A stretch of DNA of 64,000 nt from Candidatus Omnitrophota bacterium (GTDB taxonomy: Bacteria; Omnitrophota; Gorgyraeia; B26-G9), in NCBI GenBank assembly GCA_043805415.1, contig JAZDHZ010000043.1, positions 5,844 to 69,843 on the forward strand, in the 5' to 3' direction. Shown piece by piece: positions 5,516-35,140 of the stretch. The notes beneath the pieces are model-generated. The model was not told the DNA's origin. It ran no database searches and saw only the letters and a list, made by a program, of their open reading frames with translations. The position numbers and the translations under genes are program-made. Each line of letters starts with the position of its first letter. Position 1 is the stretch's first letter.

Positions 5516-6078
5516 ATTTATCAAAAAAATAGATGATTTATTTTTTCGGCTTAAGTATAAAGACATCCGTATCTTATCTAATTAAAACAATCGCCTCTTT
5601 TTAAAAACATTATTTACCCAGCAAAACTTTTAAAAATCATGCTTAATTTGGCAAAATCATAATTATGTGATATAATTTAACTAAGATAAGAGTTTATAAA
5701 AGAATGAAATATGTGTTGAGGAAGAGGAAGGTAATTATTTAGTATTTTATATTTATAATAATTATTCTTAAATAACGCAATTGTTTAAACTTATACACCT
5801 GCCTCCTTACTCCTCAAAGTTTTTGGGAAATTGCATTTTTGTATTATGCTTAATTTTTCTAAACCTAAGCAAAGTGCAAGTCTTCGAAAAAAAGCGTTTA
5901 AAGAAATATCCGAAAAGGCAAACCTGTCGAAAGGCAGGGGCATTCTAGTGGAATAACTATAATCGTTAATTCGCTAGAATCCCTTAAAAGGTTTTTTAAG
6001 GGGCAAAGCTATGGATCTAAAGCATATGTGATGATCGCCTGGCTGACCGATAACGAGTTAACCTATATGCCAAGATTG

Positions 6079-6114
6079 CCAAGCTGCCGAATTATTAGCA
6101 GATTGGCTTTTTTT
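6079..6114 (+). terminator. orphan intrinsic terminator-like hairpin (ccaagctgc ... gcagattgg + T7)
   Basis: 9-bp stem with one mismatch followed by TTTTTTT; nearest upstream CDS ends 560 bp away, so it may end an unannotated small transcript. Confidence 0.35.
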
Positions 6115-6204
6115 ATACTTATTAATATGATCCAGAAATAAATATTATATGGTTAGGTATTTTTCGATATTTTATATTTTTCCTTAAACAAATGGGGGCA
6201 AAAA

Positions 6205-9200: not shown

Positions 9201-11427
9201 TTTGCAGCTGAAACTGGCGGCAAAACTTACGGATATATTTACTGCTAAGGGAAATACTATTGAGGAAATTGCTCAGTGTTTATTTACTGTGGGAATTGGG
9301 CTGGATAATGTAGCGGTTATATTAAAAGCAAAAAGTACTGAGTTTGATAGTGCCTATAGCATTTTAACTAATCTTACCCAAGGGCAAAAACTTATGGATG
9401 TCGCATTTGCATTGATAAACAGCGGATTTGATAATGAAACAGTTGTCAGCACAGTTGTCGATGAACTTAAAATTCAGGGCAAGACTAATGCCGAAATTAT
9501 AAATCTTTTTATCGGAACTGTTGATCTTAAGAGCGGATTAACTGATACGCAGAAACAATGCGCATTGTCTTTAATAAAAAAATTGCGTGCTGAAGAAGGA
9601 GTATCCTTGTCAAGCATTTGCAATGACTTGGGCTCCACGGGATTAACTTTAGAAAAAATCCTTCCGCTTATGAAATCCGCGGAAATTAGTACAGAAGATA
9701 CTTTTAACGCGCTTTTAAGTTTTGACAAAGGACAAGATCCAGTGGAATTGGCAAATGTTTTAATGACTAATAATTATACGCATAAAGAAGTTTTTGAAGC
9801 ACTGGTAAATTATTTAGAGGGACTTGGTTCGGAATATAGTGTTAATAAGATAATTGAGATGGTAATCGGGGATATTGATGCTGAGAACGGATTAAGCGGG
9901 ATACAGCTGGGATACGCGCGTGATCTTGCTAATGCTTTTTTAGCAAATGATACTTCTTTAGAAGTCATTGCCACAGGATTTTTAAATCATGGGGTCACGC
10001 TTACAAATACCGTAATTATTTTAAAACTGGCTGAAGCGGAAGCAGAAGAAACTTACACGGCCCTGATGTCCGCATATGTGCCTAAGGAAGATGAAGTAGC
10101 GATTAGAGAGATAACATCAAAAATGATCAGCGCTGGGTACAGCTCTTTTACTGTTTATGCTTTTGCCGTTAAAAAGCTTGCTGATCAAGGGATCACTAAT
10201 GAAGTTGAAATAGTAGATATATTAATTGGACCGGTTAATTCCGAGGATTCCCAGCAACTTCGCAATGCCGGGAAACTATCGATGGTTATTAATTATAATA
10301 AAGCGATATTAACTGCCCAGAACACTGAGGAATCGTTTATTGTTTTATTTAAACAAGGATTTACCATAGAACAGATTACCCAGATGTTGAATGAAGGAGG
10401 AGTTAGCGACGAGCAAGTAAACGCGACCTTTTTGCAGGGATTTAGTGATATTGTTAAAGAATTAGTCAAATCAGGAATGAGCCCGGAGAGCATTGTTAAG
10501 TTACTTATTAATAAGGATAACAAACTAGATTATGTCCGGCCGCTTGCCGAACAGTTAAGACGCAATGATTTTGCCTCAACGGAAGTGCGCAGCGCTTTTT
10601 ATTCCATGCCTGGAGGCATGTACTCTTCGGATTGGGATCTTATCAGTAATGGTTTAGCAGATGCGGATGATTACCGGATTGAAAATACGCAAGAAGCTCA
10701 GACGATTAATTCGATGCTTAATGAAGGTCAGACTTTAACCGAGATTAGTCAGCATTTCGCGGAACAAGGATATCAGATGTCCTTTATCGGAAAACTGTTT
10801 AAAACTCTCGGACAATCAATTGAAGAAATATTTAATGCTTTGGATAATACTAAAACTTTTTATAGTGATGATCTTCTGGTTAATGATACTGCCGCTTCAA
10901 TTGTATTGCTAAAATATTATTCACACAAGGATGTTTTTACTTGCGCAACCCAATATTATAAGGAAAGGAACGTGAATTCTGAGGGGATTATTTTAAAGCT
11001 GATGAGTTCAGCGATTAAAGTTGATTCAACCAACGTTATCGCGGATACAATTGTAGGAGAGTATTACGCGTCTAAAGCCGATATTCAGACACAGTCTTTT
11101 GTAACTCTTATGGATGCTGGATATTCGGTTATTTGGATAAAAGACGCATTATTGAAAAAGAATTTTACTGCCGAAGCCATTGAAGCATTTATCCAAAATG
11201 GTGACAACTTTAAAGCGATATACCAGGGATTATCTGCCCAGGGATTTAGCGCCAGCAATATTGTTAAGCGTTTTGAAGTTGCGGAAAGCCCGGGAGAATA
11301 TACCGTACTCCTGGCTGAAAATATGATTAAAGATGGTCTCAGTGAAACGGAAGTAACCAGCATTCTTTTAAGTTATAAGGCTGATCCTGATTTAATAAAA
11401 CAAGGCATTGCCAGAGGATTAGCTTGA
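6205..11427 (+). CDS. giant secreted repeat protein (1740 aa), about 10 tandem ~140-aa alpha-helical modules
   Basis: N-terminal signal peptide (LIKICLILYCLEVFIPNSIFAQQ); recurring motifs GFSL(D/N)EI, NGGQDS..V(I/A)..AL...GY, ELK.QDYSTA.II..LIG.VDP..G repeated through the protein; uninterrupted 5.2-kb ORF with RBS gggggcaaaaaATG. Confidence 0.7.
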   Translation: MDKRAQLIKICLILYCLEVFIPNSIFAQQLPEQTEAQTAIIEESFTDGNVETLTIAADPDTIHLESMLSSEQLAETYAYAFDLLNDQGAEDIITAYLENGYSLSAIGEILKNASFSLEDTFKAMVNHLGEDSLGEIIGALLEAKFKSGDVFKVAINHLKQVSPELTDNQIIEKVLGTSVDPANLKSLMQEIFIEKISSVSDPIKCDLVIAMIDSGFSLNEITSALTENGFSIDQIAQIYSLGSIDIGLTYDLLLNTPGSQETDVIRALLASSYTKSEVFECIVNKLSGTKSVEQIVSTIMGQIDVGGPSDEQLNNAIVLSGVLHAGGISISEISGAFLSAGFNLDNVVAVLNGIGTALDDAFATLLGANGGQSIADVAAALISNGFDVHAVFALSTAEFKNQGVGLTQVVQALIGTIDPEKGPTKNQTDNSRLLVDVLLNADDSLQNIAEAFIANDFGLENTAKLFKSNGVSAVDTYNALVGATEGEYASVAVAMTTIGFTGSIVIELAVTDLKAHEFSNADIMSMLIGTVEEGKIPTNPQITIAGCLTKILIDQGVALPEIGENLISQGFNLNYTAKIFKKADVDITEAFSVMIKLDAEAGFDVVCADLKAAGYRAADIFKEAVTALQEQGHGVSEIINILITAVDSGKNATGAQINNAGDLVKYLISGGSASQEICEGLLAINFSLSDIAKVMRKTSVELDVVFAEILALGGGQDIGLVSEALIAGSYDRNSVFQIAIGELKAQDYSTAAIINTLIGVVDPEEGQSVYQKTNAPYLLLSLSLDGGNLEEICGGFLSAGFSLDEIASATKKVNIDLIQTYSALLNANGGQDSEAVINALNNAGYEISTLFELIVPELQGKDYSTAQIITFLIGNVNPVSGLSAKQLERAHILVYVLSETGESIENISTAMATAGFKVEDNAKILYRKIGDAAEAYNLLTSTYGQESVTTIALGMINAGYDIESVLNIIIPIFEDQELSMPDIISTIIGVIASENKPTSLQLKLAAKLTDIFTAKGNTIEEIAQCLFTVGIGLDNVAVILKAKSTEFDSAYSILTNLTQGQKLMDVAFALINSGFDNETVVSTVVDELKIQGKTNAEIINLFIGTVDLKSGLTDTQKQCALSLIKKLRAEEGVSLSSICNDLGSTGLTLEKILPLMKSAEISTEDTFNALLSFDKGQDPVELANVLMTNNYTHKEVFEALVNYLEGLGSEYSVNKIIEMVIGDIDAENGLSGIQLGYARDLANAFLANDTSLEVIATGFLNHGVTLTNTVIILKLAEAEAEETYTALMSAYVPKEDEVAIREITSKMISAGYSSFTVYAFAVKKLADQGITNEVEIVDILIGPVNSEDSQQLRNAGKLSMVINYNKAILTAQNTEESFIVLFKQGFTIEQITQMLNEGGVSDEQVNATFLQGFSDIVKELVKSGMSPESIVKLLINKDNKLDYVRPLAEQLRRNDFASTEVRSAFYSMPGGMYSSDWDLISNGLADADDYRIENTQEAQTINSMLNEGQTLTEISQHFAEQGYQMSFIGKLFKTLGQSIEEIFNALDNTKTFYSDDLLVNDTAASIVLLKYYSHKDVFTCATQYYKERNVNSEGIILKLMSSAIKVDSTNVIADTIVGEYYASKADIQTQSFVTLMDAGYSVIWIKDALLKKNFTAEAIEAFIQNGDNFKAIYQGLSAQGFSASNIVKRFEVAESPGEYTVLLAENMIKDGLSETEVTSILLSYKADPDLIKQGIARGLA

Positions 11428-21536: not shown

Positions 21537-22607
21537 TTAACCAACTAATTTCTTTTTAAGATTTTCCGGGTCACGCGTAACTTGCATTGCTTCATCAGTG
21601 CCAATAAGCTTACGTTTGAGCAGCTCCTGCAATGCCTGGTCAAGGGTTTGCATGCCTTGTTCCCGGCAGGTTTCAATAACCGAATAGATTTGATAAGTTT
21701 TGCCTTCGCGGATTAAATTTCTGATCGCTGAATTAACCACCATAATTTCCACAACCGGCACCCGTCCTTGTTCATCAGAGGTGATCACCAGTTGCTGGGA
21801 AACAACTGCTTGTAGAGTAATTGAAATCTGAGTGCGGATTTGCTGTTGTTGATGGGGCGGAAACACGTCAATTATTCGATCTATGGTTTGCACCGCGTCA
21901 GTAGTGTGCAAGGTAGCAAGCACCAGATGCCCTGTTTCCGCGGCAGTAATCGCGATGCTGATTGTTTCCAGATCACGCATTTCACCGACTAGGATTACAT
22001 CCGGGTCCTGGCGTAAAGTTTCCCGCAGGGCAAAAGCAAAAGAAGAAGTGTCTTGACCGATTTCCCGCTGGGAAACAAGCGATTTTTTATGTGAATGAAA
22101 ATATTCAATCGGATCTTCAAGCGTAATAATGTGACAACTGCGTTCGGCATTGATTAAATCAACAATCGCCGCTAAGGTAGTTGATTTTCCTGATCCAGTT
22201 GCTCCGGTGACCAAAATAAGTCCCCGTCGTCTGCGGGCAATATCTTTTAAAATCGGAGGCAATCCTAAATCAGAGAAACTTAAAATCTGGTTGGGAATAA
22301 ATCTTAAGGCCAAAGCTATGCTGCTGCGCTGGATATAAAGATTTATCCGAAAGCGGCAGAAAAGGTCACGTTTTTCATTTAAATAAGAATATGAAAAATC
22401 CAGTTCATGCTCTTTTTCAAATTTTTCCCTGCGGCTATCATTTAAAATTTCATAAGTTAAGCGTTTGACTTCATCCGGAGTAAGTTTTTCTTTATCAGTA
22501 AAAAACAATTCACCATTAATCCGTATGGCCGGAGGCGCGCCGGCTACTAAATGTAAATCTGAAGCATGTTTTTCAGTAACTTCATCAATCAGGTCAAAAA
22601 TTGTCAT
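21537..22607 (-). CDS. pilT: type IV pilus retraction ATPase PilT
   Basis: Walker A GATGSGKSTTLAA, Asp box, His box, and PilT-specific AIRNLIREGKTYQI motif; 356 aa. Confidence 0.85.
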   Translation of the reverse strand: MTIFDLIDEVTEKHASDLHLVAGAPPAIRINGELFFTDKEKLTPDEVKRLTYEILNDSRREKFEKEHELDFSYSYLNEKRDLFCRFRINLYIQRSSIALALRFIPNQILSFSDLGLPPILKDIARRRRGLILVTGATGSGKSTTLAAIVDLINAERSCHIITLEDPIEYFHSHKKSLVSQREIGQDTSSFAFALRETLRQDPDVILVGEMRDLETISIAITAAETGHLVLATLHTTDAVQTIDRIIDVFPPHQQQQIRTQISITLQAVVSQQLVITSDEQGRVPVVEIMVVNSAIRNLIREGKTYQIYSVIETCREQGMQTLDQALQELLKRKLIGTDEAMQVTRDPENLKKKLVG

Positions 22608-22618
22608 GGATTGTCTCC

Positions 22619-24208
22619 TTAGAAAAATATAATATCGCTTATCAATACCTTTGTCAAGAAATCGGGAAATTCTAACATTACTATTTTTAATAATTTACCT
22701 ACAGCTTCTTCGGGAATATTTATTACACAAGTATGCCAGCACTCATCAGGTTCCAACGGATATTTTGAATTAGTTTTCACAAAGCTTGTTGGTTTGTCTT
22801 TTTCCGGAAGAGTAAATAGTTTTAAACTAAGTTCAGTGCTTGAGTCTTGGCTGGTTTTTGGATCAAATTCAATTTTGAATCTTAAAAGCAGTCTATGCGG
22901 CAGCTCAAAAGGAGAGACTTTTTTACTGACAATATTAAAATCAGAGATGTAAAACCGATTAGACCCAGAGCTGGCAAGCTTTGTCAGAATCATTCCCGGG
23001 TCTTGAAAAACCACACTAGCTGAAGAAGTCCAGTAACTTTCTTGTCCGCTGGTAAAATTTGCCCGGTATTTTATCATTTTATTTTCCAGAGGAATCATTT
23101 CCTCCCCAAGATCAACAAAACCCAGACTGTCAAGTTCCTCAGGAGAGGGAATATCGCTGCGAATAAGTTTATTCTGTAATTGCTCGGGCTTGACTGATTT
23201 AGTAACCACTTCTAAATCAGATATTATATTTTTTTGATACAGTCTTTGCAGCGCCTGATCCAGGGTCTGCATGCCATCAGCACTGCCGCTTTCAATCGCG
23301 GAGTAAATCTGGTGATATTTTTTTTCCCGAATCATATTTTGAATCCCTTGGGTAGAAAACATGATCTCCAAGGCCGGAACCCGGCCATTGCCGTCATGGC
23401 GCATAACCAATTGCTGACAGATGATTGCTTGTAAAACAACTGATAGTTGTGTTCTGATCTGGTGCTGGGTATTTGACGGAAATGCGCCGATTAAGCGCGT
23501 AATCGTTTGAATGGAGTCAGTGGTTGCCATTGTGCCAAAAACAAGAATACCGGTTTCTGCTGCCTGCAGAGCAATATTAATGGTTTCAATATCGCGCATT
23601 TCGCCAATCATGATAATATCCGCGTCTTGGCGAATTGCTTCTCTTAAGGCGCAAGGGAAGCTGATTGAGTCAGTACCGATCTCTCTTTGGGAAAAAAGCG
23701 CTTTATTCGGCTTAAAAAAATACTCAATCGGATTCTCTAAAGTAATGATATGGCAGCCGCGTTTTTGATTTAAAACATCAAGAATAGCAGCCAGGGTGCT
23801 GGTTTTTCCTGATCCGGACGGGCCGCCGATAATAACCAGGCCTTTTTTTAATTGTGTGATTTTATCAATGTTTTCCGGTAAATTAAGTTCTTTGATTGTC
23901 GGCGTATGTTCAGAAAGCGTGTGAAACACACCATTGGTTAAGCCTTTTTGTTTGTAAAAAGTTACCCGAATCCTGCCAATTGATTCCAGAATATAGGTAA
24001 AATTCACGGAATTATCCAGCTTAAATGTTTTGGCTTGCGTCTCGCTCATCAGCGAAACAGCTAGGGTGTCGATTTGCTCACAATCTAGTTTTGTTGAACT
24101 TTCAGGAATTAACCGTCCGTTAATATTAAATAAAGCAGGCAGGCCGGCACTCAGATGCATGCTGGTGGCTTTTTTTTCCTGCATTGTTTTAACTAATTGT
24201 TTGAGCAT
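22619..24208 (-). CDS. PilT-family ATPase paralog with about 185-aa C-terminal extension of unknown function
   Basis: Core GGPSGSGKTSTLAA Walker A and GIQNMIREKKYHQI motif; extra C-terminal region (aa ~345-529) has no recognisable motifs. Confidence 0.75.
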   Translation of the reverse strand: MLKQLVKTMQEKKATSMHLSAGLPALFNINGRLIPESSTKLDCEQIDTLAVSLMSETQAKTFKLDNSVNFTYILESIGRIRVTFYKQKGLTNGVFHTLSEHTPTIKELNLPENIDKITQLKKGLVIIGGPSGSGKTSTLAAILDVLNQKRGCHIITLENPIEYFFKPNKALFSQREIGTDSISFPCALREAIRQDADIIMIGEMRDIETINIALQAAETGILVFGTMATTDSIQTITRLIGAFPSNTQHQIRTQLSVVLQAIICQQLVMRHDGNGRVPALEIMFSTQGIQNMIREKKYHQIYSAIESGSADGMQTLDQALQRLYQKNIISDLEVVTKSVKPEQLQNKLIRSDIPSPEELDSLGFVDLGEEMIPLENKMIKYRANFTSGQESYWTSSASVVFQDPGMILTKLASSGSNRFYISDFNIVSKKVSPFELPHRLLLRFKIEFDPKTSQDSSTELSLKLFTLPEKDKPTSFVKTNSKYPLEPDECWHTCVINIPEEAVGKLLKIVMLEFPDFLTKVLISDIIFF

Positions 24209-24257: not shown

Positions 24258-26264
24258 TTAATAATTTTCCTGCCAATTAATAAACGAAATTCCGGCAATA
24301 AAATCCGGAGGAGGATCCGGCACCATTTTTGGCACATAGCGCATATCAAGCTCTTTTCTAAGAAAAATATCATTGGCAACAATGCAGCCTTCAAGCTTGA
24401 AAGTTTCCAGATCAACAATCCCGTTTTCGGAAAATATTATTCCGTCAAAATCCCGATCCCGCGGATCTTCCACACCGGTTTCAGTAATATTGCCATCCTT
24501 GGTAATTAAAGTAGGATATTGCGGCCGCCATCTTCTAAAATAAACTCTGCCGCCGGCAGGAGTTATGACTTCTCCGGCGCGCAAGACCATGGTCTGATAG
24601 CTTTGCGCGCCGGCAAAAAAAGTAATATTAAATATCGAATTATCCATGTCGCGATTGCCCATTCCCCAAGTGAAGTTACGGAAATTATTAATCTGCATAT
24701 CAGCATATTGACCAGGAGCTATAGTGATTGTCGGACTAAAGGAAACAATTTGTCCGTCAGAAGCCCGGCCCGATGGCGGCGGATAACTCCAGTTGGTGGT
24801 AAATCCAGCTTGTCCCTGAACCTGGCTTCTCACTTCTTCATAAGCTCCGAGAAATGAAACCAGGGAAGCCCAGGACGCGGACATCGCGGTTATGGTAATC
24901 GGAGCAGTTGTATTGTTCTTGATTTGAAATTCCACATCACTGTTGGTATTAGCTTGTCTGGTAAGTTCAATATAATCCAGGCCAGAGGGGCGATATTCAT
25001 TGATAATATCGATTCCGCCAACAGCGGTAATCATGCATTGGGGAAAATTAAGATTTTTATAATAAGTATTAATTGTCGCTTTACCAGTTATATAATAACT
25101 TTCCCATAAATAATAAGCAGTGCTGGAAAAATCAAAATCAACAAACTTATCATAGCCATTAAATACAAAGTCGCCGTCAACAAATTTAGTTGCCCGGTTC
25201 CGGTAGGCCAGCATATCAACTGAAGGCATACTGACCAAAGGATCTCCCAAAGAACCCTGAGTAATATCACCGTCAATTTCTAAAGCATCAGCCGCGGGAC
25301 TGGAAGCAAGTCCCACGCTTACTGGATAAAAAGTTGATCCATCAGAAAAAGTCACATTAAAAGTAGTATTATCCATATCGCGGCGCGGATTAGAATTACC
25401 GCTAAGTCTACTGCTAAAAGTTTCTAAACGAATCTCAGCAGTAGCCATATTGGCAATAAACACTGGTTCAGTAAAGTTAACAGTTTCTCCGCTGGCAGCC
25501 CGGTTGCCGCCATTATCATAGAGGTCCCAGACACTTCCATAGTTTGTTCCACTGTACACTCTAACCCGGACTTCACTATAATAAGCAGTTGGGCTAGTCC
25601 AGGTGGCAGTTAATTGAGTAAGATTTAATGTTGCTCCGGTTTCATTAGTAACTTCAAAATTTACATTTGAATTAGAGTTCTGATCTCTGGACCCATCAAC
25701 ATAATACAACCCTGATTTAACCCCTATTCCCAATACTGAATTATTGGCGTGAATATCACCTTCTAAACTGCCTGTAGCAGTATCCGCAAAAGTAATATTA
25801 GTATTAGACATTAAGAGAAATTTCCAGGCGCATAAATAAACAATTGCCTCAGTGGTCCGCTGGGCATTGCCGACATAACCAGTGGAAATAATCCGGACAA
25901 AATCCTCACCAATATCTACTGCCTCAGCAACTGTAACAATGTAATAACCATCAGTCATGTTTTCCTGATATGACCAAGGCATGGTATCAACGTTGGGAGT
26001 TTCGACGATTAAGCGCATTGCCCGGTCAATTCCGGCTTCAGCCACAAAAAAAGCTTTTTCTCCGTTTTCCTGATTGCGGGCAATGCCGCTTTCACTAAGC
26101 ATAGTAGACAGGTAAGTGGTACTAAGCATAAATAGCACTACCATGACAATCAAGGCAAGGAGCAAAGCAATGCCTTTGTCTTGTCTTTTTTTAGATTTAA
26201 TGATTATATTTTTATTTACATTTTGATCTAACATCTTGTCCTTATTAATTAAAATCCTACTCAA
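24258..26264 (-). CDS. large pilus-associated protein with PilX-like N-terminal segment and internal tandem duplication
   Basis: N-terminal KGIALLLALIVMVVLFMLSTTYLSTMLSESGIA resembles PilX_N; two homologous segments (…RRDMDNTTFNVTFSDGSTFYP… vs …NRDMDNSIFNITFFAGAQSYQ…); sits downstream of pseudopilins. Confidence 0.45.
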   Translation of the reverse strand: MSRILINKDKMLDQNVNKNIIIKSKKRQDKGIALLLALIVMVVLFMLSTTYLSTMLSESGIARNQENGEKAFFVAEAGIDRAMRLIVETPNVDTMPWSYQENMTDGYYIVTVAEAVDIGEDFVRIISTGYVGNAQRTTEAIVYLCAWKFLLMSNTNITFADTATGSLEGDIHANNSVLGIGVKSGLYYVDGSRDQNSNSNVNFEVTNETGATLNLTQLTATWTSPTAYYSEVRVRVYSGTNYGSVWDLYDNGGNRAASGETVNFTEPVFIANMATAEIRLETFSSRLSGNSNPRRDMDNTTFNVTFSDGSTFYPVSVGLASSPAADALEIDGDITQGSLGDPLVSMPSVDMLAYRNRATKFVDGDFVFNGYDKFVDFDFSSTAYYLWESYYITGKATINTYYKNLNFPQCMITAVGGIDIINEYRPSGLDYIELTRQANTNSDVEFQIKNNTTAPITITAMSASWASLVSFLGAYEEVRSQVQGQAGFTTNWSYPPPSGRASDGQIVSFSPTITIAPGQYADMQINNFRNFTWGMGNRDMDNSIFNITFFAGAQSYQTMVLRAGEVITPAGGRVYFRRWRPQYPTLITKDGNITETGVEDPRDRDFDGIIFSENGIVDLETFKLEGCIVANDIFLRKELDMRYVPKMVPDPPPDFIAGISFINWQENY

Positions 26265-26273
26265 ATAAACTTA

Positions 26274-26843
26274 TCACATGTTTCTTAGATGAACTGCTTT
26301 GCGCATAGTTGATGTATAATCAGATGCTTTACCGATTTTTTTAATCCGCAGAGTCGCGGTAATAAAAAAAACATTGCCTGGGCTTGTGGTTTCACCGGAA
26401 TGTTTATCATAGTATTTCAGATCCAATAAATCCACATAATTAGCCAAAGGCATACCCGCTGATTCTGAATCAAATTTTCTTAATAAATCCGCGCCAAAGA
26501 TTCCGCTCCAAGTATAGGAGAGGATTTCATTGCTGTCCGCGATTTTATTCTCATTTGTGTCTTGGTACCAAAAACGGATCTGATTAGCTGTTATTGTATA
26601 AAATTCACGGCCATGCTTAATTTCATCACACATTTTATCCAATCCGATCCTGGCGTTTTGAATAACCTCGGTTTTATTTTCTCCGGTTTCCCAAGACAAA
26701 GCGCCTTGACGTAAAAACTCATATATCGGATAAAGCACTAGGGCAAGAATTGCCACAGTGCAGATAAGCTCAACCAAGCTCATGCCTGATTTGTTTAAAT
26801 TTAATTTTGCTGTATTTAATTTTAAGGTATTAAGATTATCCAT
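26274..26843 (-). CDS. prepilin-type N-terminal cleavage/methylation domain protein (minor pilin/pseudopilin)
   Basis: KSGMSLVELICTVAILALV resembles class III signal GFTLIEL + hydrophobic helix. Confidence 0.55.
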   Translation of the reverse strand: MDNLNTLKLNTAKLNLNKSGMSLVELICTVAILALVLYPIYEFLRQGALSWETGENKTEVIQNARIGLDKMCDEIKHGREFYTITANQIRFWYQDTNENKIADSNEILSYTWSGIFGADLLRKFDSESAGMPLANYVDLLDLKYYDKHSGETTSPGNVFFITATLRIKKIGKASDYTSTMRKAVHLRNM

Positions 26844-26854
26844 ACTTAGCTGGT

Positions 26855-27436
26855 CTAATAATGAGACATTATTGTTTCCACGGTTTTGTTATTAATTTTT
26901 GGATGCGCGACTGTAACCACAATACTTTTATAATAAGTTGAAGCTCCAGCTGGTTCCCATGTATTATTATTAATTCGCGTGTATTTTACTTTTACGCTTC
27001 TGGTAAAGTCCTTGAAATCAGTTAACACAATGCCGTCAATAGTTTTGGGCGGTTTGCTGCTCCAGTTATTGTAATCATCAATATCATCAAAAGTAGAGCG
27101 GTTATTCGGATCTTCGCCAAAATCAGTGCCCAAAGCTCCCAAACTGACTGGTTCATCAGGAAACTCATTCTCATCAAATCGCTTACCTTTGATTTCTTCG
27201 ATTAAATCATCAGCTAAATCAGTGGCTTGGGTAACTATTTCCGCATTAATATTGCCTTGAAATCCAATATAAAATTGAGATAAGAGAGGGATTAGAGCCA
27301 AGGCCAGAATCATTACTGCCATCAGCACCTCAATATAAGAAAACCCCGCTTGAGCAGATACTCTTGCGAGGTTGGGAAAAAGCGAATAAACTAAATATCG
27401 TATTTGTCTTATTGCTAGCTTAGCTAAGCGTATCAT
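26855..27436 (-). CDS. prepilin-type N-terminal domain protein (minor pilin/pseudopilin)
   Basis: AGFSYIEVLMAVMILALALIPLL prepilin-like motif after a 25-aa leader. Confidence 0.55.
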   Translation of the reverse strand: MIRLAKLAIRQIRYLVYSLFPNLARVSAQAGFSYIEVLMAVMILALALIPLLSQFYIGFQGNINAEIVTQATDLADDLIEEIKGKRFDENEFPDEPVSLGALGTDFGEDPNNRSTFDDIDDYNNWSSKPPKTIDGIVLTDFKDFTRSVKVKYTRINNNTWEPAGASTYYKSIVVTVAHPKINNKTVETIMSHY

Positions 27437-27696: not shown

Positions 27697-28161
27697 ATGC
27701 TTGATTTTTTTCCTGCGGTCCGGAAAAATTTTGGGTTTAGTTTGATTGAGCTGCTGATTGTTATTTCGATTATCGGAGTAATGTCTTTATTAGGGATTCC
27801 GCTGTTTAAGGATTATGTGCAATTTTCAGCTTTAAAAAGCGATGCTTGGAAGGTGGTTTCGGATTTTCGTTCATACCGACAACTGGCGATTATTGAGCAT
27901 TGCAATTATCGGTTTGTATTTGATCTAAACAGCGATTCATATAAAATAGAGCAAAGGGATTCCGGAACCAATGCTTTAATTGCAACCATTGCCACCAGAA
28001 CACTTAGCAATGATATTACCCAAGCTGTGGATACTACTTTTATGCCTAAGGGCCAGGCTGATCCAGCAGCAACGATACTGATAAAAGGGAAGAATTCAGC
28101 AGACAAAGTAACGATCACGGTGTTCGCGACTACTGGTTTGTCAAAAATGACTGGGCCATAA
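27697..28161 (+). CDS. type IV pilin (prepilin with class III signal)
   Basis: FGFSLIELLIVISIIGVMS canonical prepilin cleavage/methylation motif (G-F-x-x-x-E) followed by hydrophobic alpha1 helix; 154 aa. Confidence 0.7.
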   Translation: MLDFFPAVRKNFGFSLIELLIVISIIGVMSLLGIPLFKDYVQFSALKSDAWKVVSDFRSYRQLAIIEHCNYRFVFDLNSDSYKIEQRDSGTNALIATIATRTLSNDITQAVDTTFMPKGQADPAATILIKGKNSADKVTITVFATTGLSKMTGP

Positions 28162-28167
28162 AATAAT

Positions 28168-29763
28168 ATGCTACCTAAAATCAAACAAATTAAAGGCAAT
28201 TTAGATCAGGAAATCAATCTTTTTGAGCCAGGACAAAAACTGGTGAGTATTGATATTGGTTCTGAATTGATTAAGCTGGTGGTGCTTAAAGAAGCGCCGA
28301 TCGGCACGCGTTTGATCACTCTGGCTTGTGTGGAAATTCCCCCAGCAGCTGACGCGGAAACACCAGAAGACGCGAACAAAAGAATAAACTCTGCTTTAAA
28401 AAAAGCAATTAGCCAGCTAAGCACCCCAATTAAAAAAGTAAATACAATTATTATTACTCCGTCTTTAAATATTAAAAATATCAGTTTGCCTTTGATGCCG
28501 GATGAAGAATTAAAAGAATCGGTTAAATGGGAAATGGAACAGAATATTACTTATCCTATTGATACCGCTACCGTAGATTTTTTAATTGCCGGAGAAACTA
28601 TCCGTTCAGGAGCCAAGAATCTAGAATTAGAAGTTGTGGCAGCGCAGAATGAAGAGATCAATCAGTTTATCCAGAAATATACGGATAATAAATTGATAGT
28701 AAGCTCGATTAATATCCCGGCTTTTTGTCTTTGGAATACATTTCAAAAATCGAATCAATGGAAAGAAGATGACACAATCGCTTTGGTTGATATTGGCGCC
28801 AGCTCTACAAAAATATGCATTTTTACTAATAATATCCTTAAATTCACCCGGGAAATATTTTTTGGCAGCAAGACAATTACCGCTGCTTTGCAAAAAGATA
28901 ATAATCTTGCTTACGCGGAAGCGGAAAATCTTAAGATCAGGTATGGCTTAACTGAGTCTGCGACTTATTATCAAAGTGTGGCTGATTCGCTTAAAGAACT
29001 GACTGGCCAGATGAATCGATCCTTTGGTTATTATAAAGCCCAATTTCATATTGAACGTGTTGATCGGCTAATTGTTTATGGCGGCACCTCAAAAATGATT
29101 AATTTAGACAAATTTCTTAGTGAAGAACTAGGGATATTTGCTGAAATCGGTAAACCGTTCAATGGTTTATTGTTTAATCAAAAGGCGTTTGAAAATCTTG
29201 ATGATTTCGCGGCTTTTTTCGGCATGGCTATTGGCGCTGCCATGACCAGCGGAAATGCCAAACGAATAAATCTTTTACCTGCTGAACTGCGTAAAGACAA
29301 GACCGTGGGCATGAAAAAAGCTTTGTTTAAGATTATTCCATTACTAATAATCTTTGCTCTGTTTTTCATATACATCAGATTGATCGATACAGAAAAAAAA
29401 CTTACGCGGGAAAAAGTAGCAAAAGAATTAATAATCAGCACTTGGAAAGAACAGCAGGAGTATGAAAGAAAACTAAAATTTCTAAAGTCATTGCCTGACG
29501 CGCAGGATTCATGGATTAAGATTTTTCGGGGAGTCAGTGAGATTATTCCCGAAGGGGTTTGGCTTGACTCAATTACGATTGAAGAGAAAAACAAAAAAAT
29601 TGTTTTAAAAGGCGCCGGACAGACGAATATCATTGTTATGGAACTTGTCCGCAAGCTGGAATCATTGCCTTATTTCAGCAATGTGAGGCTTGAGTCTGTT
29701 GAAGAAAAAGGCGATGAAAAAGCGCCTACGACTTATTTTAAAATAACCATCGGGAAAAAATAA
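28168..29763 (+). CDS. type IV pilus assembly PilM-PilN fusion protein
   Basis: N-terminal actin-like PilM (VSIDIGSELIKLVVL, IDIGASSTKICIF) followed by INLLPAELRKDK + TM helix characteristic of the PilN N-terminus. Confidence 0.7.
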   Translation: MLPKIKQIKGNLDQEINLFEPGQKLVSIDIGSELIKLVVLKEAPIGTRLITLACVEIPPAADAETPEDANKRINSALKKAISQLSTPIKKVNTIIITPSLNIKNISLPLMPDEELKESVKWEMEQNITYPIDTATVDFLIAGETIRSGAKNLELEVVAAQNEEINQFIQKYTDNKLIVSSINIPAFCLWNTFQKSNQWKEDDTIALVDIGASSTKICIFTNNILKFTREIFFGSKTITAALQKDNNLAYAEAENLKIRYGLTESATYYQSVADSLKELTGQMNRSFGYYKAQFHIERVDRLIVYGGTSKMINLDKFLSEELGIFAEIGKPFNGLLFNQKAFENLDDFAAFFGMAIGAAMTSGNAKRINLLPAELRKDKTVGMKKALFKIIPLLIIFALFFIYIRLIDTEKKLTREKVAKELIISTWKEQQEYERKLKFLKSLPDAQDSWIKIFRGVSEIIPEGVWLDSITIEEKNKKIVLKGAGQTNIIVMELVRKLESLPYFSNVRLESVEEKGDEKAPTTYFKITIGKK

Positions 29764-29765
29764 AT

Positions 29766-30332
29766 ATGGATATGCCGTCAATCAGGTTGCCCAATATTCA
29801 GACAAAGTATAAGGTGATAGCCGCTATTGGAATAATTGCCTTGGTTTTCGGCTATTATTATGATCATGCTTATAAGCCGCACGCGAAAAAAATTGAGGAT
29901 TTACAATCAGAATTGCTTACGTTGGAAGATACTTTGAAAATCATTAAAACTTTAGAATATCCTGATGTTAAAACTGATCAAGCGATCTTAAGTAAGATTC
30001 AAATTAAAAAGAATTCATTCCTTTCCCAAATCGACGGGCATGAAAGTAAACTTGCTAATAAAAATCAGTTTTCTAAAATTCTTGAGCAAATAACGCGTCT
30101 TTCTTATGATGTGGGTTTTGATATAAAAGCCTTAGAGCCCAAAGAGTTTACCTTGAAGCAGGATTATAACAGCATGTATTTAAACATGGAGGTGAATTCC
30201 CGGTTTCAAAACTTGCTTGATTTTCTTGAGCGTTTAAAAGAACTTCCGGTTTTCCCGGAAAGTATTTATATTGATATCAGGGAAAGACCGAATTTAGGCA
30301 TTAGACTTAATCTTTCAATCCTGGCTAGGTAG
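29766..30332 (+). CDS. PilO-like pilus assembly protein
   Basis: N-terminal TM, coiled-coil then alpha/beta domain; position after PilMN. Confidence 0.5.
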   Translation: MDMPSIRLPNIQTKYKVIAAIGIIALVFGYYYDHAYKPHAKKIEDLQSELLTLEDTLKIIKTLEYPDVKTDQAILSKIQIKKNSFLSQIDGHESKLANKNQFSKILEQITRLSYDVGFDIKALEPKEFTLKQDYNSMYLNMEVNSRFQNLLDFLERLKELPVFPESIYIDIRERPNLGIRLNLSILAR

Positions 30333-30336
30333 GAAA

Positions 30337-30867
30337 ATGAATAAAATAGCGAAAAATAAAAATCAGATTCTTGAAGTTCTGAACCGGCTTGCCGCAAAGC
30401 GTTTTTCGAATAATGAAAAAATCGCTTTGATTATTATTTTTATTATTATCGGTTTAATCGGTAATTATTATTTTAACAATTGGATTGCCGCTTTAAAAAG
30501 TAAAAATAGTGTGGTTATTCCTATATCGCCGCCGATTATTCCCAAATTGCCTGATCCGCTTATTATAAAACCAGTAAAATTTGAAGAACCGATTTTTCCG
30601 GAAATAAATACTCCGACACTGCGCGATCCATTTCTCTCATCTAAAAATCCGCAAGAACTGAAAACTATTGTCACCAAAAAACCTTCGGTGGAATTAAAAC
30701 TCAGCGGGATTCTCTGGGATGACAAGATCCCCTCGGCAATCATAAACTCAAGTATTGTAAAAATCGGGGATTTGATTGAAGGCAAAACAGTAGTTGACAT
30801 AGAAAAGAACCAGGTAGTTGTGATGGAAGACGGCAAAATTCTTATCCTGGAACTTAGAAAACAATAA
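30337..30867 (+). CDS. hypothetical membrane-anchored pilus-operon protein (PilP-like?)
   Basis: TM helix then Pro-rich linker and beta-rich C-terminus; last gene of pilMNO block. Confidence 0.3.
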   Translation: MNKIAKNKNQILEVLNRLAAKRFSNNEKIALIIIFIIIGLIGNYYFNNWIAALKSKNSVVIPISPPIIPKLPDPLIIKPVKFEEPIFPEINTPTLRDPFLSSKNPQELKTIVTKKPSVELKLSGILWDDKIPSAIINSSIVKIGDLIEGKTVVDIEKNQVVVMEDGKILILELRKQ

Positions 30868-30945: not shown

Positions 30946-32130
30946 ATGGAAACAAAACAAAAAAAAATCCGTGTGCTGCATTTAATTACCCGCATGATTG
31001 TGGGCGGAGCCCAGGAAAACACACTATTAACTGTTGTCGGCTTAAATAAAATAGCGGATTATGAGCTCACGCTGTTAACCGGACCTTCTTTAGGCCCAGA
31101 AGGAGCTTTGCTCAATAACCAGACCAGTGGTTTTAAGCTGGAGGTCTGTCCATTTCTAATAAGGAATATTAACCCGATTTTTGATTTAATCGCGTTTTGG
31201 AAAATATATTGGTTTATTAAAAAAAACAAAATCGATATTGTCCATACGCACAGCTCAAAAGCCGGAATCTTGGGCCGTGTTGCCGCAAAATTAGCCAAGG
31301 TTCCGATCATTATTCACACAATTCATGGTTTGCCGTTTTTTGCCGAGCAGAATAATTTAATTAATAAAATCTATATTTTTCTCGAGAAAGCAGCCGCCAG
31401 GTTTACGGACGCGATAATCTGCGTGTCTCAATCAATTATTGATGAAGCGGTGCAAGCCCATATTGCTAAAAAAGAAAAATTTGTAAAAATTTACAGCGGC
31501 ATTGACCTGACTCATTATCATTCGGATGAGCAGATTCGGCAGGCTTATAGAAAAAGACTGTCAATTCCTGAAGACAGTCTGGTGGTAGGGAAATTAGCAC
31601 GCTTATTTAATTTAAAAGGCCATAATTTTCTCTTGGAAGCAGCAGTGATTGTTAAACAAAAATTCCCGAATCTTAAACTCTTATTTATCGGCGATGGGAT
31701 TTTAAAAAAACAATTAGAACAAAAAGCAAAGAAACTCGGGCTTGAGGATTGCCTAATTTTAACGCGTTTAATCCGGCCGGAAGCAGTACCTTATTATCTG
31801 CAGTGTGTGGATGTTTTAGCGCATGTATCTTTGCATGAAGGCTTACCTAGGGCAGTTGTTCAGGGCTTTGCCTTGGAAATTCCAGCGGTTTGTTTTGATT
31901 TAGATGGAGCCAAGGATATTATTCGCAATGGAGTTAATGGTATCTTGGTCAGCCCGAAAAATGTTCCGGAACTGGCAAAAGCCTTGTCTAAACTGCTTGG
32001 CGATAAAGCGCTGCGACGGCAAATGGGTGAGCAAGGTAAAAAAATTGTCCAGGATGCTTTTGACAGCCAAACAATGGTTTTGGCAATTGATTTTGTTTAT
32101 CGAAGATTATTAAAATCATGTGGAAATTAA
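30946..32130 (+). CDS. GT4-family glycosyltransferase
   Basis: EGLPRAVVQGFALEIPAVCFDLDGAKDIIRNGVNGILV matches the GT-B C-terminal E-x7-E region of GT4 enzymes. Confidence 0.75.
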   Translation: METKQKKIRVLHLITRMIVGGAQENTLLTVVGLNKIADYELTLLTGPSLGPEGALLNNQTSGFKLEVCPFLIRNINPIFDLIAFWKIYWFIKKNKIDIVHTHSSKAGILGRVAAKLAKVPIIIHTIHGLPFFAEQNNLINKIYIFLEKAAARFTDAIICVSQSIIDEAVQAHIAKKEKFVKIYSGIDLTHYHSDEQIRQAYRKRLSIPEDSLVVGKLARLFNLKGHNFLLEAAVIVKQKFPNLKLLFIGDGILKKQLEQKAKKLGLEDCLILTRLIRPEAVPYYLQCVDVLAHVSLHEGLPRAVVQGFALEIPAVCFDLDGAKDIIRNGVNGILVSPKNVPELAKALSKLLGDKALRRQMGEQGKKIVQDAFDSQTMVLAIDFVYRRLLKSCGN

Positions 32131-33191
32131 TTTATAGCTATATTTTTATTTTTAGTTTATTTGCTTCCTTGGTCCTGGTAAGCGCTTTTCGCCGCCTGGC
32201 TATCCGCTGGCAGGTTGTTGATCTGCCCCAGGCGCAGAGAAAAATTCATACCCAGTCCACGCCGCTTTTAGGCGGAGCAGCAATGTACGCGGCATTTACT
32301 TTAACCATTGGCCTGAATCTGCTCCTGATTTATTTTTTCTTTGCCAAAGGAATGCTTCCTGAATACATCACTGTGTATCTAGCCGGGATAAAATTAATTA
32401 CACTCCAGCTGAGCGCGATTCTAGGCACAACTTTTGTTTTAGTGCTTATGGGAATTTATGATGATATTAAAGGCCTTGGCGCTAAAACTAAATTAGGCAT
32501 TGAAATAATCCTGGCCAGCATTGTTTTTTTCAGCGGAATCAAAATCAGCTTATTTATCCATAATCCGTTTATTTGCTGGCTGATTACGGTTTTATGGATT
32601 GTCGGGATCAGCAATGCTTTTAATTTACTTGATAATATGGATGGCTTGAGCAGCGGGATTGCTTTAATCTCCAGCATTATATTTTTTCTGGTTGCTGTGT
32701 CTGGCCACCATTTTTTTGTGGCCACGATTCTGGCTTGTTTTTCCGGAGTAATGCTCGGGTTTTTATGGTTTAATTTTCCGCCGGCCAAGGTATTTATGGG
32801 TGATGCCGGCAGTTTATTCATTGGCTATACTTTGAGCCTGCTGACAATCATCAATACTTATTATACCCATTCCGCGCCAACTATCGCGCCGGTAATCATG
32901 CCTTTATTAATCATGGCTGTGCCGATTTTTGATACCTTGTCCGTGATCCGCATCCGTTTAAAAAATAAAGTATCGATTTTTCAGGCTGATAAAAATCATC
33001 TTTCGCACCGCCTGATGCAGCGGGGAATGAGCGTAAAACAGACATTGTTTTTTATTTATCTGTTAAGTTTCGCCATTGGACTGGGCGGATTATTGCTTAC
33101 TGCTTTAAACGCGCAGGGATGTTATCTAGTTTTAATTCAGGCAATCTGCATTATTTTAATCATTGCTATTTTAGAAGGGAATAAACAATGA
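32118..33191 (+). CDS. polyprenyl-phosphate N-acetylhexosamine-1-phosphate transferase (WecA/MraY family)
   Basis: NAFNLLDNMDGL and FMGDAGSLFIGY motifs diagnostic of MraY/WecA superfamily; about 10 TM helices. Confidence 0.8.
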   Translation: MWKLIYSYIFIFSLFASLVLVSAFRRLAIRWQVVDLPQAQRKIHTQSTPLLGGAAMYAAFTLTIGLNLLLIYFFFAKGMLPEYITVYLAGIKLITLQLSAILGTTFVLVLMGIYDDIKGLGAKTKLGIEIILASIVFFSGIKISLFIHNPFICWLITVLWIVGISNAFNLLDNMDGLSSGIALISSIIFFLVAVSGHHFFVATILACFSGVMLGFLWFNFPPAKVFMGDAGSLFIGYTLSLLTIINTYYTHSAPTIAPVIMPLLIMAVPIFDTLSVIRIRLKNKVSIFQADKNHLSHRLMQRGMSVKQTLFFIYLLSFAIGLGGLLLTALNAQGCYLVLIQAICIILIIAILEGNKQ

Positions 33192-35140
33192 TCCGGCTGA
33201 TCTTGGCAATGCTTGTCATAGTCTTATGCTGCTTTTGGCTGGTCTGGCGAAGATTCGACAAAAATATTCCCAATGCCGTACGCTTAATTATTATTTCAAC
33301 CTGCGGGCTTTTTTTCTTAAGAACCATAATCGGTGAAACTTATTTATTTTCCGCTCAGCTGATTTTTCAGGTATTGATTTTTTTTCTTGGTTTTGTTTAT
33401 CTTTTATACCTCTGCATCGGCAAACAACAGCTCGCTAATCAGCCGGTTTGCTTTAGCTTGAATTTATTTGATAAATTATTTTTTCTGTTTATAAGTTTTT
33501 TAACCATAAGCGTTTGGTTTTCGGTTAATAAAGAAGCGAGTATTGCCACGCTGGTTTATTTTTCCTCGCTGTATGTCTGGTATTGGCTGATTGCCAATCT
33601 GCCGCAAGCCAAAAGCATTAACCGGATTTTTCAAGCCATAATTTTTCTTGCCTGCGGTTTATTGATCAGCTATGGTTTTTATCAATATCATATTGGTTTT
33701 CAAACCATGCGCGAGTTTTTAGCTAAAAACCCGGAGTATATGATCCAATCCCGGGAATTTATCCGCAGGATGCAGTCAAACGTTGTATTCGCGACTTTTA
33801 TTTATGCCCCGGCATTTGGCAGCTATTTGACCATGATGTTTTTAACTATCCTGGGATTTTGTTTTGCCCAAGGCAATCTGTTTCAGCCGGCATTTAAACT
33901 GCGATTATGTTTAAAATATGTGCTGCTTTTATTAATCATTCCTTTACTGATTTTAACCAAAGCCAAAGCAGCCTGGCTGGGTTTAGGCATTGGCCTGATT
34001 TGTTTTTTTCTGCTGATTAAACCTAAAACCAGGCAAAAAGGTTTTCTGATCGGAACGCTGCTTAGTTTACTGGGATTATTTACCCTAAGTTTTATCTTGA
34101 TCAGCAGTTCTGATAAAATTCATTTACCCAAACTGGAAAATTTTCTGGTTTCTTTTAAGGTAAGACTGGAATACTGGAAGGCAGCTTTTGCTATGATCAA
34201 ACAGCGGCCTTTGCTTGGCTTTGGCCCTGGAACATTCGGCAGCGTGTATCCTTTGTTTAAAACCCTTAATGCTGAAGAAACAATTATGTGCCACAATAGT
34301 TTTCTTCAGATCTGGGCAGAGGGAGGCAGTTTTGTATTTCTGGCTTTTTGTTTATTTTGGCTGAGCTTTATCCAGCAGGCAATAAGCAGGATTAAAAAGA
34401 TCTTTGGAGCCAGCCGGTTTATCAGTGCTGGCTTATTCTCCGCTATCTTAAGTTTCTTATTTGTCAATCTGCTTGATTTCAGCTTATATGACGGACAAAC
34501 TGCTTTGATTGGTTTTGGGCTTATCGGCTTATTGCAGTATCAGCTTAACTCTGAGCCAAAACTCAATACTGAACATATGCCTAAGCGCAAACTGCATAAA
34601 CTGCTGATTATTTGTATTGGCTGTTTATTTTTAACTTGTGTTCTGGGTTATTCAGGTTTAGTTTATTGCGCGCGGATTTTTGATGATAAAGCTTCTTTTG
34701 AATATAAAAATGCCAGGCTTGAACAGGCATTAGCTTATACCAATAAAGCCATTGGTTTACAGGGGTTTAGCGGAAAATATTATTATCATAAAGGGATTAT
34801 TCTGGAAAAAATGATTTTAAATCCTAAAATCAGCCCTGAGCAGAAAAAGGAATTATTAAACCAGGCAGTTAAAAATTTTGAGCAGGCAGTAAAATTGGAC
34901 TGGTTTATGCCGCATTATCATTATAAATTAGCCACGGTTTTATATTATTTAAATCAGCCGGAAGCTAAACAGCGCGCAGGCAGAGAATTTGAACAAGCCG
35001 CTGCTTTATATCCGGTAAATCCGTTTTATCACGAGCAGCTTGCCGAGTTTTATAATATAAACGGCAAAATTGGTGACGCGCAGAAACAGCAGGCAATTGC
35101 CGCGGAAATGAAAAAATATTTTAAAACCGGAACAAGATAA
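33188..35140 (+). CDS. Wzy_C/O-antigen ligase-family protein with C-terminal TPR repeats (candidate O-oligosaccharyltransferase)
   Basis: Polytopic membrane domain with GFGPGTFGSVYP...HNSFLQIWAEGG Wzy_C signature; C-terminal TPR-like helices. Confidence 0.65.
   Translation: MIRLILAMLVIVLCCFWLVWRRFDKNIPNAVRLIIISTCGLFFLRTIIGETYLFSAQLIFQVLIFFLGFVYLLYLCIGKQQLANQPVCFSLNLFDKLFFLFISFLTISVWFSVNKEASIATLVYFSSLYVWYWLIANLPQAKSINRIFQAIIFLACGLLISYGFYQYHIGFQTMREFLAKNPEYMIQSREFIRRMQSNVVFATFIYAPAFGSYLTMMFLTILGFCFAQGNLFQPAFKLRLCLKYVLLLLIIPLLILTKAKAAWLGLGIGLICFFLLIKPKTRQKGFLIGTLLSLLGLFTLSFILISSSDKIHLPKLENFLVSFKVRLEYWKAAFAMIKQRPLLGFGPGTFGSVYPLFKTLNAEETIMCHNSFLQIWAEGGSFVFLAFCLFWLSFIQQAISRIKKIFGASRFISAGLFSAILSFLFVNLLDFSLYDGQTALIGFGLIGLLQYQLNSEPKLNTEHMPKRKLHKLLIICIGCLFLTCVLGYSGLVYCARIFDDKASFEYKNARLEQALAYTNKAIGLQGFSGKYYYHKGIILEKMILNPKISPEQKKELLNQAVKNFEQAVKLDWFMPHYHYKLATVLYYLNQPEAKQRAGREFEQAAALYPVNPFYHEQLAEFYNINGKIGDAQKQQAIAAEMKKYFKTGTR

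Follow-up and report, generated by a model that had tools for sequence, protein, structure and literature searches.

A PilX-class minor pilin of Candidatus Omnitrophota with two predicted beta-sandwich domains in a beta-solenoid core

A 64,000-nucleotide stretch of Candidatus Omnitrophota DNA (the window) contains an open reading frame (ORF) for a 668-residue protein, which a sequence-only reading had described as PilX/PilY1-like, internally duplicated and a candidate pilus-tip adhesin. The locus raises the question of what kind of pilus protein this is, where in the pilus it would be placed and what its repeated segments contribute. The evidence supports its assignment to the minor pilins of the PilX class, and its gene lies in an operon for minor pilins of a type IV pilus. 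We favour, with a probability of about 0.6, the reading that it is a modular, tip-located capping pilin of the PilX/GspK class, part of a retractable type IVa pilus and displaying two putative binding modules.

The ORF opens with a TTG codon; its first in-frame ATG is at position 26234, with an AAGGA Shine-Dalgarno sequence 4-5 nucleotides upstream. Translation from this ATG gives a 658-residue form that is 100% identical to an NCBI protein from a Candidatus Omnitrophota metagenome-assembled genome (MAG), annotated as 'pilus assembly PilX N-terminal domain-containing protein' (P0001). Because of the Shine-Dalgarno sequence and this exact match, the true product is probably the 658-residue protein. 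Residue numbers given here follow the 668-residue form unless 658-residue numbering is stated.

Internal duplication and predicted architecture

The internal duplication is real and goes far beyond chance. Residues 184-321 (R1) and 427-564 (R2) are 34% identical across 137 columns, with an E-value of 7e-24 in a blastp comparison using composition-based statistics. Their Smith-Waterman score is 207, while 2000 shuffles gave 32.5 ± 5.9 with a maximum of 69 (z=29). Both copies open with the motif S-G-[LVI]-x-Y-[VI] and close about 138 residues further on; they are about 105 residues apart, and the spacer is an unrelated beta-solenoid segment. The sequence-only reading had proposed two homologous segments of about 200 residues, making up the two halves of the protein. 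The duplication stands, and the conserved stretches it quoted are conserved strands of the repeat unit, but that unit is about 138 rather than 200 residues long. Instead of two halves, the protein consists of a core with two inserted 138-residue domains, and syntenic orthologues of 349-350 residues lack both.

An AlphaFold2 model of the whole protein, calculated from a 14-sequence alignment, has a mean predicted local distance difference test score (pLDDT) of 78.9. In 658-residue numbering, it starts with a single long helix (residues 11-78), followed by four antiparallel strands (87-93, 96-104, 112-121 and 124-133) and, after this sheet, by a long series of short strands that resembles a beta-solenoid. 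This solenoid is broken up by two compact domains, both all-beta and with pLDDT values of about 85-92. When R1 was modelled separately, nine beta-strands and one short helix were obtained, with a pLDDT of 94.2 and a predicted template modelling score of 0.89. As modelled, R1 and R2 are discrete beta-sandwich domains, located in separate loops of a beta-solenoid core. The C-terminal tail, P-D-P-P-P-D-F-I-A-G-I-S-F-I-x-W-Q-E-N-Y, has several invariant positions and low pLDDT in the monomer model; it probably forms the last strand of the pilin or an interface with a partner.

A profile search identified two PilX_N proteins of 349-350 residues from other Omnitrophota (P0018 and P0019) that lack exactly R1 and R2. 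They align to the N-terminal, middle and C-terminal parts of the protein, leaving R1 and R2 as clean insertions, while another homologue (P0023) has the second insert only. P0019 is encoded in the same operon as the protein described here. On one side, this operon contains Wzy_C, GT4 and GT1 genes, a gene in the PilP position and those for PilO, PilMN and a GspH-like pilin; on the divergent side it contains genes for two pilins, the PilX gene, two pilT genes (products of 530 and 357 residues) and a Memo/AMMECR1 gene. The gene order of the window is also that at the loci of a 40%-identical two-domain homologue (L001) and of a domain-less, 349-residue orthologue (L002). The confident separate model of R1 and the module-less orthologues together correspond to a modular pilin in the sense of Raynaud et al. 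2021, that is, a pilin joined to an independently folding module. Orthologues with no, one or two inserts form a natural series for what the modules add.

A neighbour-joining tree, calculated without bootstrap, places all R2 copies and the single domain of P0023 in one clade, with the R1 copies split into two groups outside this clade; judged from this tree, the duplication is older than the family. A hidden Markov model (HMM) of the domain, run over the window and five loci (L001-L005), found no copies beyond the expected proteins. Mean pairwise identity is 43% for R2, 53% for R1, 55-65% for the rest of the core and 75% for the alpha-1 helix, making R2 and R1 the fastest-evolving parts and alpha-1 the slowest.

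Because the orthologues with no or one domain hold the same place in the operon, the inserts appear dispensable for the core role. This would agree with a purely structural cap, in which R1 and R2 have no external ligand; their role would be to make the tip plug more stable or wider, to protect it against proteases or phages, or to contact partner minor pilins. Such a cap would also account for the absence of a match to any binding family, and for cyanobacteria a plug function of the solenoid has been suggested. However, R1 and R2 are two independently folded, fast-evolving domains of a kind that many different pilin classes carry at their exposed C-termini, in some cases three times over, and this pattern is more typical of displayed functional modules (PMC8179133), and we regard a purely structural role as unlikely.

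The protein contains 14 N-x-S/T sequons, where shuffled sequences have 7.7 ± 2.5 (p about 0.015). The many sequons noted earlier are present, but their enrichment, about 1.8-fold, is mild. Four of them fall in conserved motifs of the domain family, F-x-V-x-N-x-T-G and F-N-[IV]-T-F. Given this mild enrichment, partly located in conserved strand motifs, and with no PglB/STT3-type oligosaccharyltransferase among the ORFs scanned, the idea of an N-glycoprotein was set aside.

Pilin class and position in the pilus

The N-terminal, PilX_N-like hydrophobic segment reported by the sequence-only reading is borne out by a Pfam match over the cut-off (PF14341, 28.0 bits against 25.5, E=2.2e-6) and by the long helix of the AlphaFold2 model. 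PilX_N was also matched in all of the 14 full-length homologues. The predicted mature end, K-G↓I-A-L-L-L, has a leucine at position +5 and no Glu5, unlike the three neighbouring prepilins, all of which have Glu5-type ends (G↓F/M-S-x-x-E). Lack of a glutamate at mature position +5, while the partners have one, is as expected for the PilX/GspK class. So is the company of PilV/GspI-, PilW/GspJ- and FimU/GspH-like neighbours, of which the PilV and GspH assignments are weak and the PilW assignment is by position only. The gene order confirms the place of the gene after two prepilin genes and before a PilT pair.

GspK itself shares with the protein the absence of Glu5, the capping position, an insertion in the pilin fold and a weak N-terminal similarity (T2SS_GspK, E=0.003). 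This match and the weak GspH-, GspI- and XpsI-like matches of the neighbouring pilins would be consistent with the protein being the GspK of a pseudopilus like that of type II secretion, and not a subunit of a surface pilus. Against this, the score for GspK (NF037980) is 17.1 bits, far under the equivalog cut-off of 130, and is confined to residues 30-88, the helix only; the domain inserted in GspK is alpha-helical and is absent here. The operon is of the PilT/PilMNO and not of the Gsp type: two PilT-family ATPases and PilM, PilN and PilO are hallmarks of type IVa pili, and genes for GspC, D, E, F or L are lacking. A pseudopilus GspK is, in our judgement, highly improbable.

Large size and a position after the minor pilins, where PilY1 often sits, are what the protein has in common with non-pilin adhesins of the PilY1/PilC type. 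It has no vWA domain and no C-terminal beta-propeller of the PilY1/PilC type, for which Pfam gave no match at E≤1 among all 14 homologues either, and its N-terminal helix is of a pilin type that PilY1 does not have. For ComGG (NF041014), the score is 13.9 bits against a cut-off of 40, and the likeness is limited to the N-terminal helix. As family assignments, PilY1/PilC and ComGG are both refuted, leaving them virtually no chance of being correct. The earlier PilX/PilY1-like label thus keeps its PilX half and loses the other, for want of a PilY1/PilC beta-propeller or any other PilY1 signature, and the comparison with ComGG suggested at the same time does not extend past the helix. DUF7305 matched a single homologue, just under its cut-off, and was not used.

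The closest solved architecture is that of ComZ from Thermus thermophilus (PDB 6QVI), a pilin of the GspK type into which a large beta-solenoid is inserted; it has been argued on steric grounds to be located only at the tip, where it binds DNA (PMC6561018). A Foldseek search with the whole model returned ComZ as the best PDB match (6qvi_B, probability 0.99), with template modelling (TM) scores of 0.22/0.28. The pattern of secondary structure in the AlphaFold2 model may be that of a pilin fold with the solenoid placed before the C-terminal strand, but these TM scores are low and the tail is of low confidence. As modelled, the protein would combine a pilin module with a large beta-solenoid, as ComZ does, and both proteins are encoded beside partner minor pilins. 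They differ in that ComZ has no inserted beta-sandwich domains and is a DNA receptor, and their sequences show no detectable similarity; a profile of the 14 homologues, run against all PDB sequences, gave no match at E≤10, ComZ included. Whole-model Foldseek matches to two-domain proteins (factor V/VIII C1-C2, neuropilin b1b2 and CBM32 pairs), with TM scores of about 0.1 and root mean square deviations of more than 20 Å, were considered spurious and not taken as evidence of a discoidin fold.

According to a 2026 preprint, all cyanobacterial PilX proteins have this design of a pilin with a solenoid, some with extra domains of unknown function; they lack Glu5, hence would cap the filament, and the solenoid has been proposed to replace the PilY1 plug and adhesin in organisms without PilY1 (bioRxiv 10.64898/2026.02.12.705559). 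The Omnitrophota protein is like these proteins (PilX-Com and PilX-EPS/HpsA-like) in the absence of Glu5, in the predicted solenoid within the pilin fold and in the extra domains that some of them have. It is from a different phylum and has no NCBIfam Hps-family match, and its extra domains are a duplicated beta-sandwich family in the solenoid loops. On the basis of the model, the core shares its architecture with ComZ and the cyanobacterial PilX tip pilins; homology is not claimed.

The architecture also agrees with a ComZ-like DNA receptor, in which extracellular DNA would be bound at a competence pilus tip by the solenoid, either alone or together with R1 and R2, and imported through PilT-driven retraction. 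ComZ binds DNA (PMC6561018), the cyanobacterial PilX-Com of the same architecture is needed for transformation (bioRxiv 10.64898/2026.02.12.705559), and two PilT ATPases adjoin the gene. However, sequence similarity to ComZ is lacking, and no comEA, comEC or dprA gene was seen beside the locus. The protein has few lysines (K 2.8%, R 4.8%) and is richer in acidic residues (D 6.6%, E 4.8%), and the presence of the inserted domain on numerous pilins of the GspG-like and PilV-like types is in keeping with a generic module for display. We therefore hold a DNA receptor to be decidedly unlikely.

Modular pilins show how binding modules can be grafted onto a pilin and used for adhesion (PMC8179133). 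PilB, with its vWA module, and PilC, with its lectin module, of Streptococcus sanguinis, and CofB, are like the Omnitrophota protein in that modules which fold independently have been grafted onto a pilin and are presented by the filament, probably at its tip (PMC8179133, PMC9934059). Their modules are C-terminal, attached via a linker and from known families, and their N-terminus is a canonical N_methyl; in the Omnitrophota protein, an undescribed domain is inserted internally, twice, into a solenoid, and the N-terminus is PilX_N.

Of the tip adhesin proposed earlier, the tip location is the best inference from PilX_N, the absence of Glu5, the ComZ-like architecture and the PilV-, PilW- and FimU/GspH-like partners. 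In the model that follows from the favoured reading, a tip-located capping pilin with two binding modules, this pilin and its PilV-, PilW- and FimU/GspH-like neighbours would form a priming complex on the PilM-N/O platform. The PilX-class pilin would top the complex and stay at the distal tip while the fibre grows, because without Glu5 nothing could be added above it. Its solenoid would be the tip plug, a role held elsewhere by PilY1, and R1 and R2 would face outwards as ligand-binding modules. The two PilT ATPases would then retract the pilus, drawing the cell to the bound target.

For bacteria that are ultra-small and probably host-dependent, that target would most plausibly be the surface of another cell or a glycan. 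The Omnitrophota, nanobacteria that are uncultured, are believed to rely on other cells; the proposed means of their attachment to hosts, and a leading candidate for it, is the type IVa pilus (PMC10066038). This proposal fits the model, as do the faster evolution of R2 and R1 and the adhesion modules grafted onto other pilins. The locus would then point to the subunit most likely to make the first contact in Omnitrophota attachment, and the exposed part of this subunit would be built from a domain that has no match in Pfam, NCBIfam or solved structures.

Several observations weigh against the favoured reading. No ligand-binding family was matched for R1 or R2, and their best PDB folds are weak, generic beta-sandwiches (E≥1.2e-3, TM≤0.48). 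There is no sequence link to ComZ in the profile comparison with the PDB (E≤10), and TM is low for the fold match to it. The gradient of conservation counts for little, as peripheral domains evolve faster for trivial reasons. A subunit of about 70 kDa with two lateral domains would also have to pass the secretin. Finally, no major pilin, PilB, PilC, PilQ or prepilin peptidase was found in the window, so that the type IVa assignment rests on PilT, PilM, PilN and PilO.

The beta-sandwich domain family

When 1.84 billion representative proteins were searched exhaustively with a profile, the domain turned up in 188 clusters at E≤1e-3 (83 at E≤1e-10), whereas a word-indexed protein search with the domain alignment returned nothing. 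Named members come from Planctomycetota and Fidelibacterota/FCB-group MAGs and from Omnitrophota; they are called 'hypothetical protein', except for one JGI entry, 'MSHA pilin protein MshD'. A Pfam scan of 100 of the family's proteins identified N_methyl in 40, CarboxypepD_reg in 26, T2SSG (GspG-like) in 16 and PilX_N in 4. Some proteins contain three copies of the domain, and 91 of the 151 near-complete copies end 15 residues or less from the C-terminus.

Copies at the C-terminus of GspG-like pilins (P0015-P0017, P0021 and P0028) have a cysteine near their start and another in their last 2-3 residues (…D-C…G-x-C-P), both of which are missing from the inserted copies R1 and R2. The two cysteines probably form a disulfide tying the termini of the domain together. 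This suggests that the N- and C-termini are close together, and that the domain could therefore be spliced into a loop. One of these GspG-like pilins (P0016) is encoded in a run of four prepilin genes beside a TonB-dependent receptor gene (positions 6009-9928 of its locus, L004), an arrangement unlike that of the Omnitrophota PilX operon.

No Pfam or NCBIfam model covers the domain. The archaeal flagellin family PF01917 matched 11 of 60 domain copies, at profile positions of about 59-155 and with a best E-value of 9.6e-5; R1 and R2 scored 13-19 bits against its cut-off of 29.5. Domain profiles compared with PDB sequences gave no significant match, the hits including four CBM3a chains at E=0.04-0.17. 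R1 and R2 did not reach significance for CBM3 either in Pfam (CBM_3, E≥0.12) or in Foldseek (E=0.024-0.045). Foldseek searches with R1 against the PDB and viral models returned weak matches to generic beta-sandwiches, including the diphtheria toxin receptor-binding domain, TTHA1873, an archaeal pilin, BslA and CBM3a. The best PDB fold match was TTHA1873 (E=1.2e-3, TM 0.45); the archaeal pilin 8fk7 (TM 0.45) and the CBM3a structures 4jo5 and 1nbc were matched at E=0.018-0.045. The globular domain of archaeal flagellins and pilins (PF01917) and CBM3 are all-beta sandwiches like R1 and R2, but every match is under curated or significance thresholds, and an archaellin or CBM3 ancestry is a lead, not established. 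The domain thus represents a family of beta-sandwiches associated with pilins, for which no relative has been described.

PilX_N proteins, solenoid tip pilins and modular pilins were already known; the domain family, and the splicing of two copies of one domain into solenoid loops, appear to be new. The domain has no Pfam, NCBIfam or PDB match and is not mentioned in the literature compared here, which did not include a search aimed at the domain. The catalogue of modular pilins is expected to be incomplete by its authors, many modules having no signature (PMC8179133), and the 188-cluster family would be a sizeable, unannotated addition to it. A wider interpretation is that of a multi-phylum family of pilin-borne modules, possibly a distant offshoot of the globular domain of archaellins and archaeal pilins or of CBM3-like glycan binders, which would be shuffled among PilX-, PilV- and GspG-type pilins as interchangeable heads for target recognition; in ultra-small, host-dependent Omnitrophota, the two fast-evolving copies at the tip would set the host or prey cell surface to which the bacterium attaches. 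This interpretation is tentative, and we consider it doubtful as it stands.

Neighbouring genes

The features of the gene and its surroundings are collected in the table. The PilT pair and the PilM-PilN fusion recur at the loci of both the two-domain homologue and the domain-less orthologue (L001 and L002).

Table. Features of the modular PilX-class pilin gene and of the adjoining pilus genes, in window coordinates (aa, amino acids).
Feature	Position	Strand	Details
Whole ORF, PilX-class modular minor pilin	24258-26264	-	668 aa from TTG
PilX_N segment, hydrophobic alpha-1 helix after K-G	26028-26177	-	residues 30-79, PF14341
Four-stranded antiparallel sheet of the pilin module	25836-25976	-	residues ~97-143, AlphaFold2
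Beta-solenoid segment a, with invariant G-D-[IV]-H-A-N turn	25716-25829	-	residues ~146-183
R1, first inserted beta-sandwich domain (predicted)	25302-25715	-	residues 184-321; HMM E=4e-55
Beta-solenoid segment b, between the inserts	24987-25301	-	residues 322-426
R2, second inserted beta-sandwich domain (predicted), most variable region of the protein	24573-24986	-	residues 427-564; HMM E=3e-52
Beta-solenoid segment c and conserved C-terminal tail	24261-24572	-	sequence conservation, AlphaFold2
PilT-family ATPase 2	21537-22607	-	356 aa
PilT-family ATPase 1	22619-24208	-	529 aa; pilT_fam 380 bits
Upstream prepilin, PilW/GspJ-like by position only	26274-26843	-	189 aa, G↓MSLVE
Upstream prepilin, PilV/GspI-like	26855-27436	-	193 aa, G↓FSYIE; TIGR02523 PilV E=4.5e-6, under cut-off
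Divergent prepilin, GspH/FimU-like	27697-28161	+	154 aa, G↓FSLIE
PilM-PilN fusion	28168-29763	+	531 aa; fusion kept in L001 and L002
PilO	29766-30332	+	
Small PilP-position protein	30337-30867	+	

PilT ATPase 1 has a C-terminal extension of about 190 residues (about 341-529) without a Pfam or NCBIfam match, and a long form of 530-534 residues is also found beside the PilX gene in L001 and L002. Directly after pilMNO(P), at 30946-35140 on the forward strand, are genes for a GT1-type glycosyltransferase, a GT4 (WecA-like) initiating transferase and a 650-residue Wzy_C protein with TPR, an adjacency that is kept in the same two loci. The Wzy_C family is that of the pilin O-oligosaccharyltransferases PglL and TfpO, which makes O-glycosylation of the pilins possible, as far as can be judged from family membership.

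Elsewhere in the window, a 1740-residue ORF (6205-11427, forward strand) has no credible Pfam domain, with sub-threshold fragments only. A 464-residue protein encoded at 53921-55315, also on the forward strand, has an N-terminal PilZ domain, of the family of receptors for cyclic di-guanosine monophosphate, fused to a T2SSE secretion/pilus ATPase domain.

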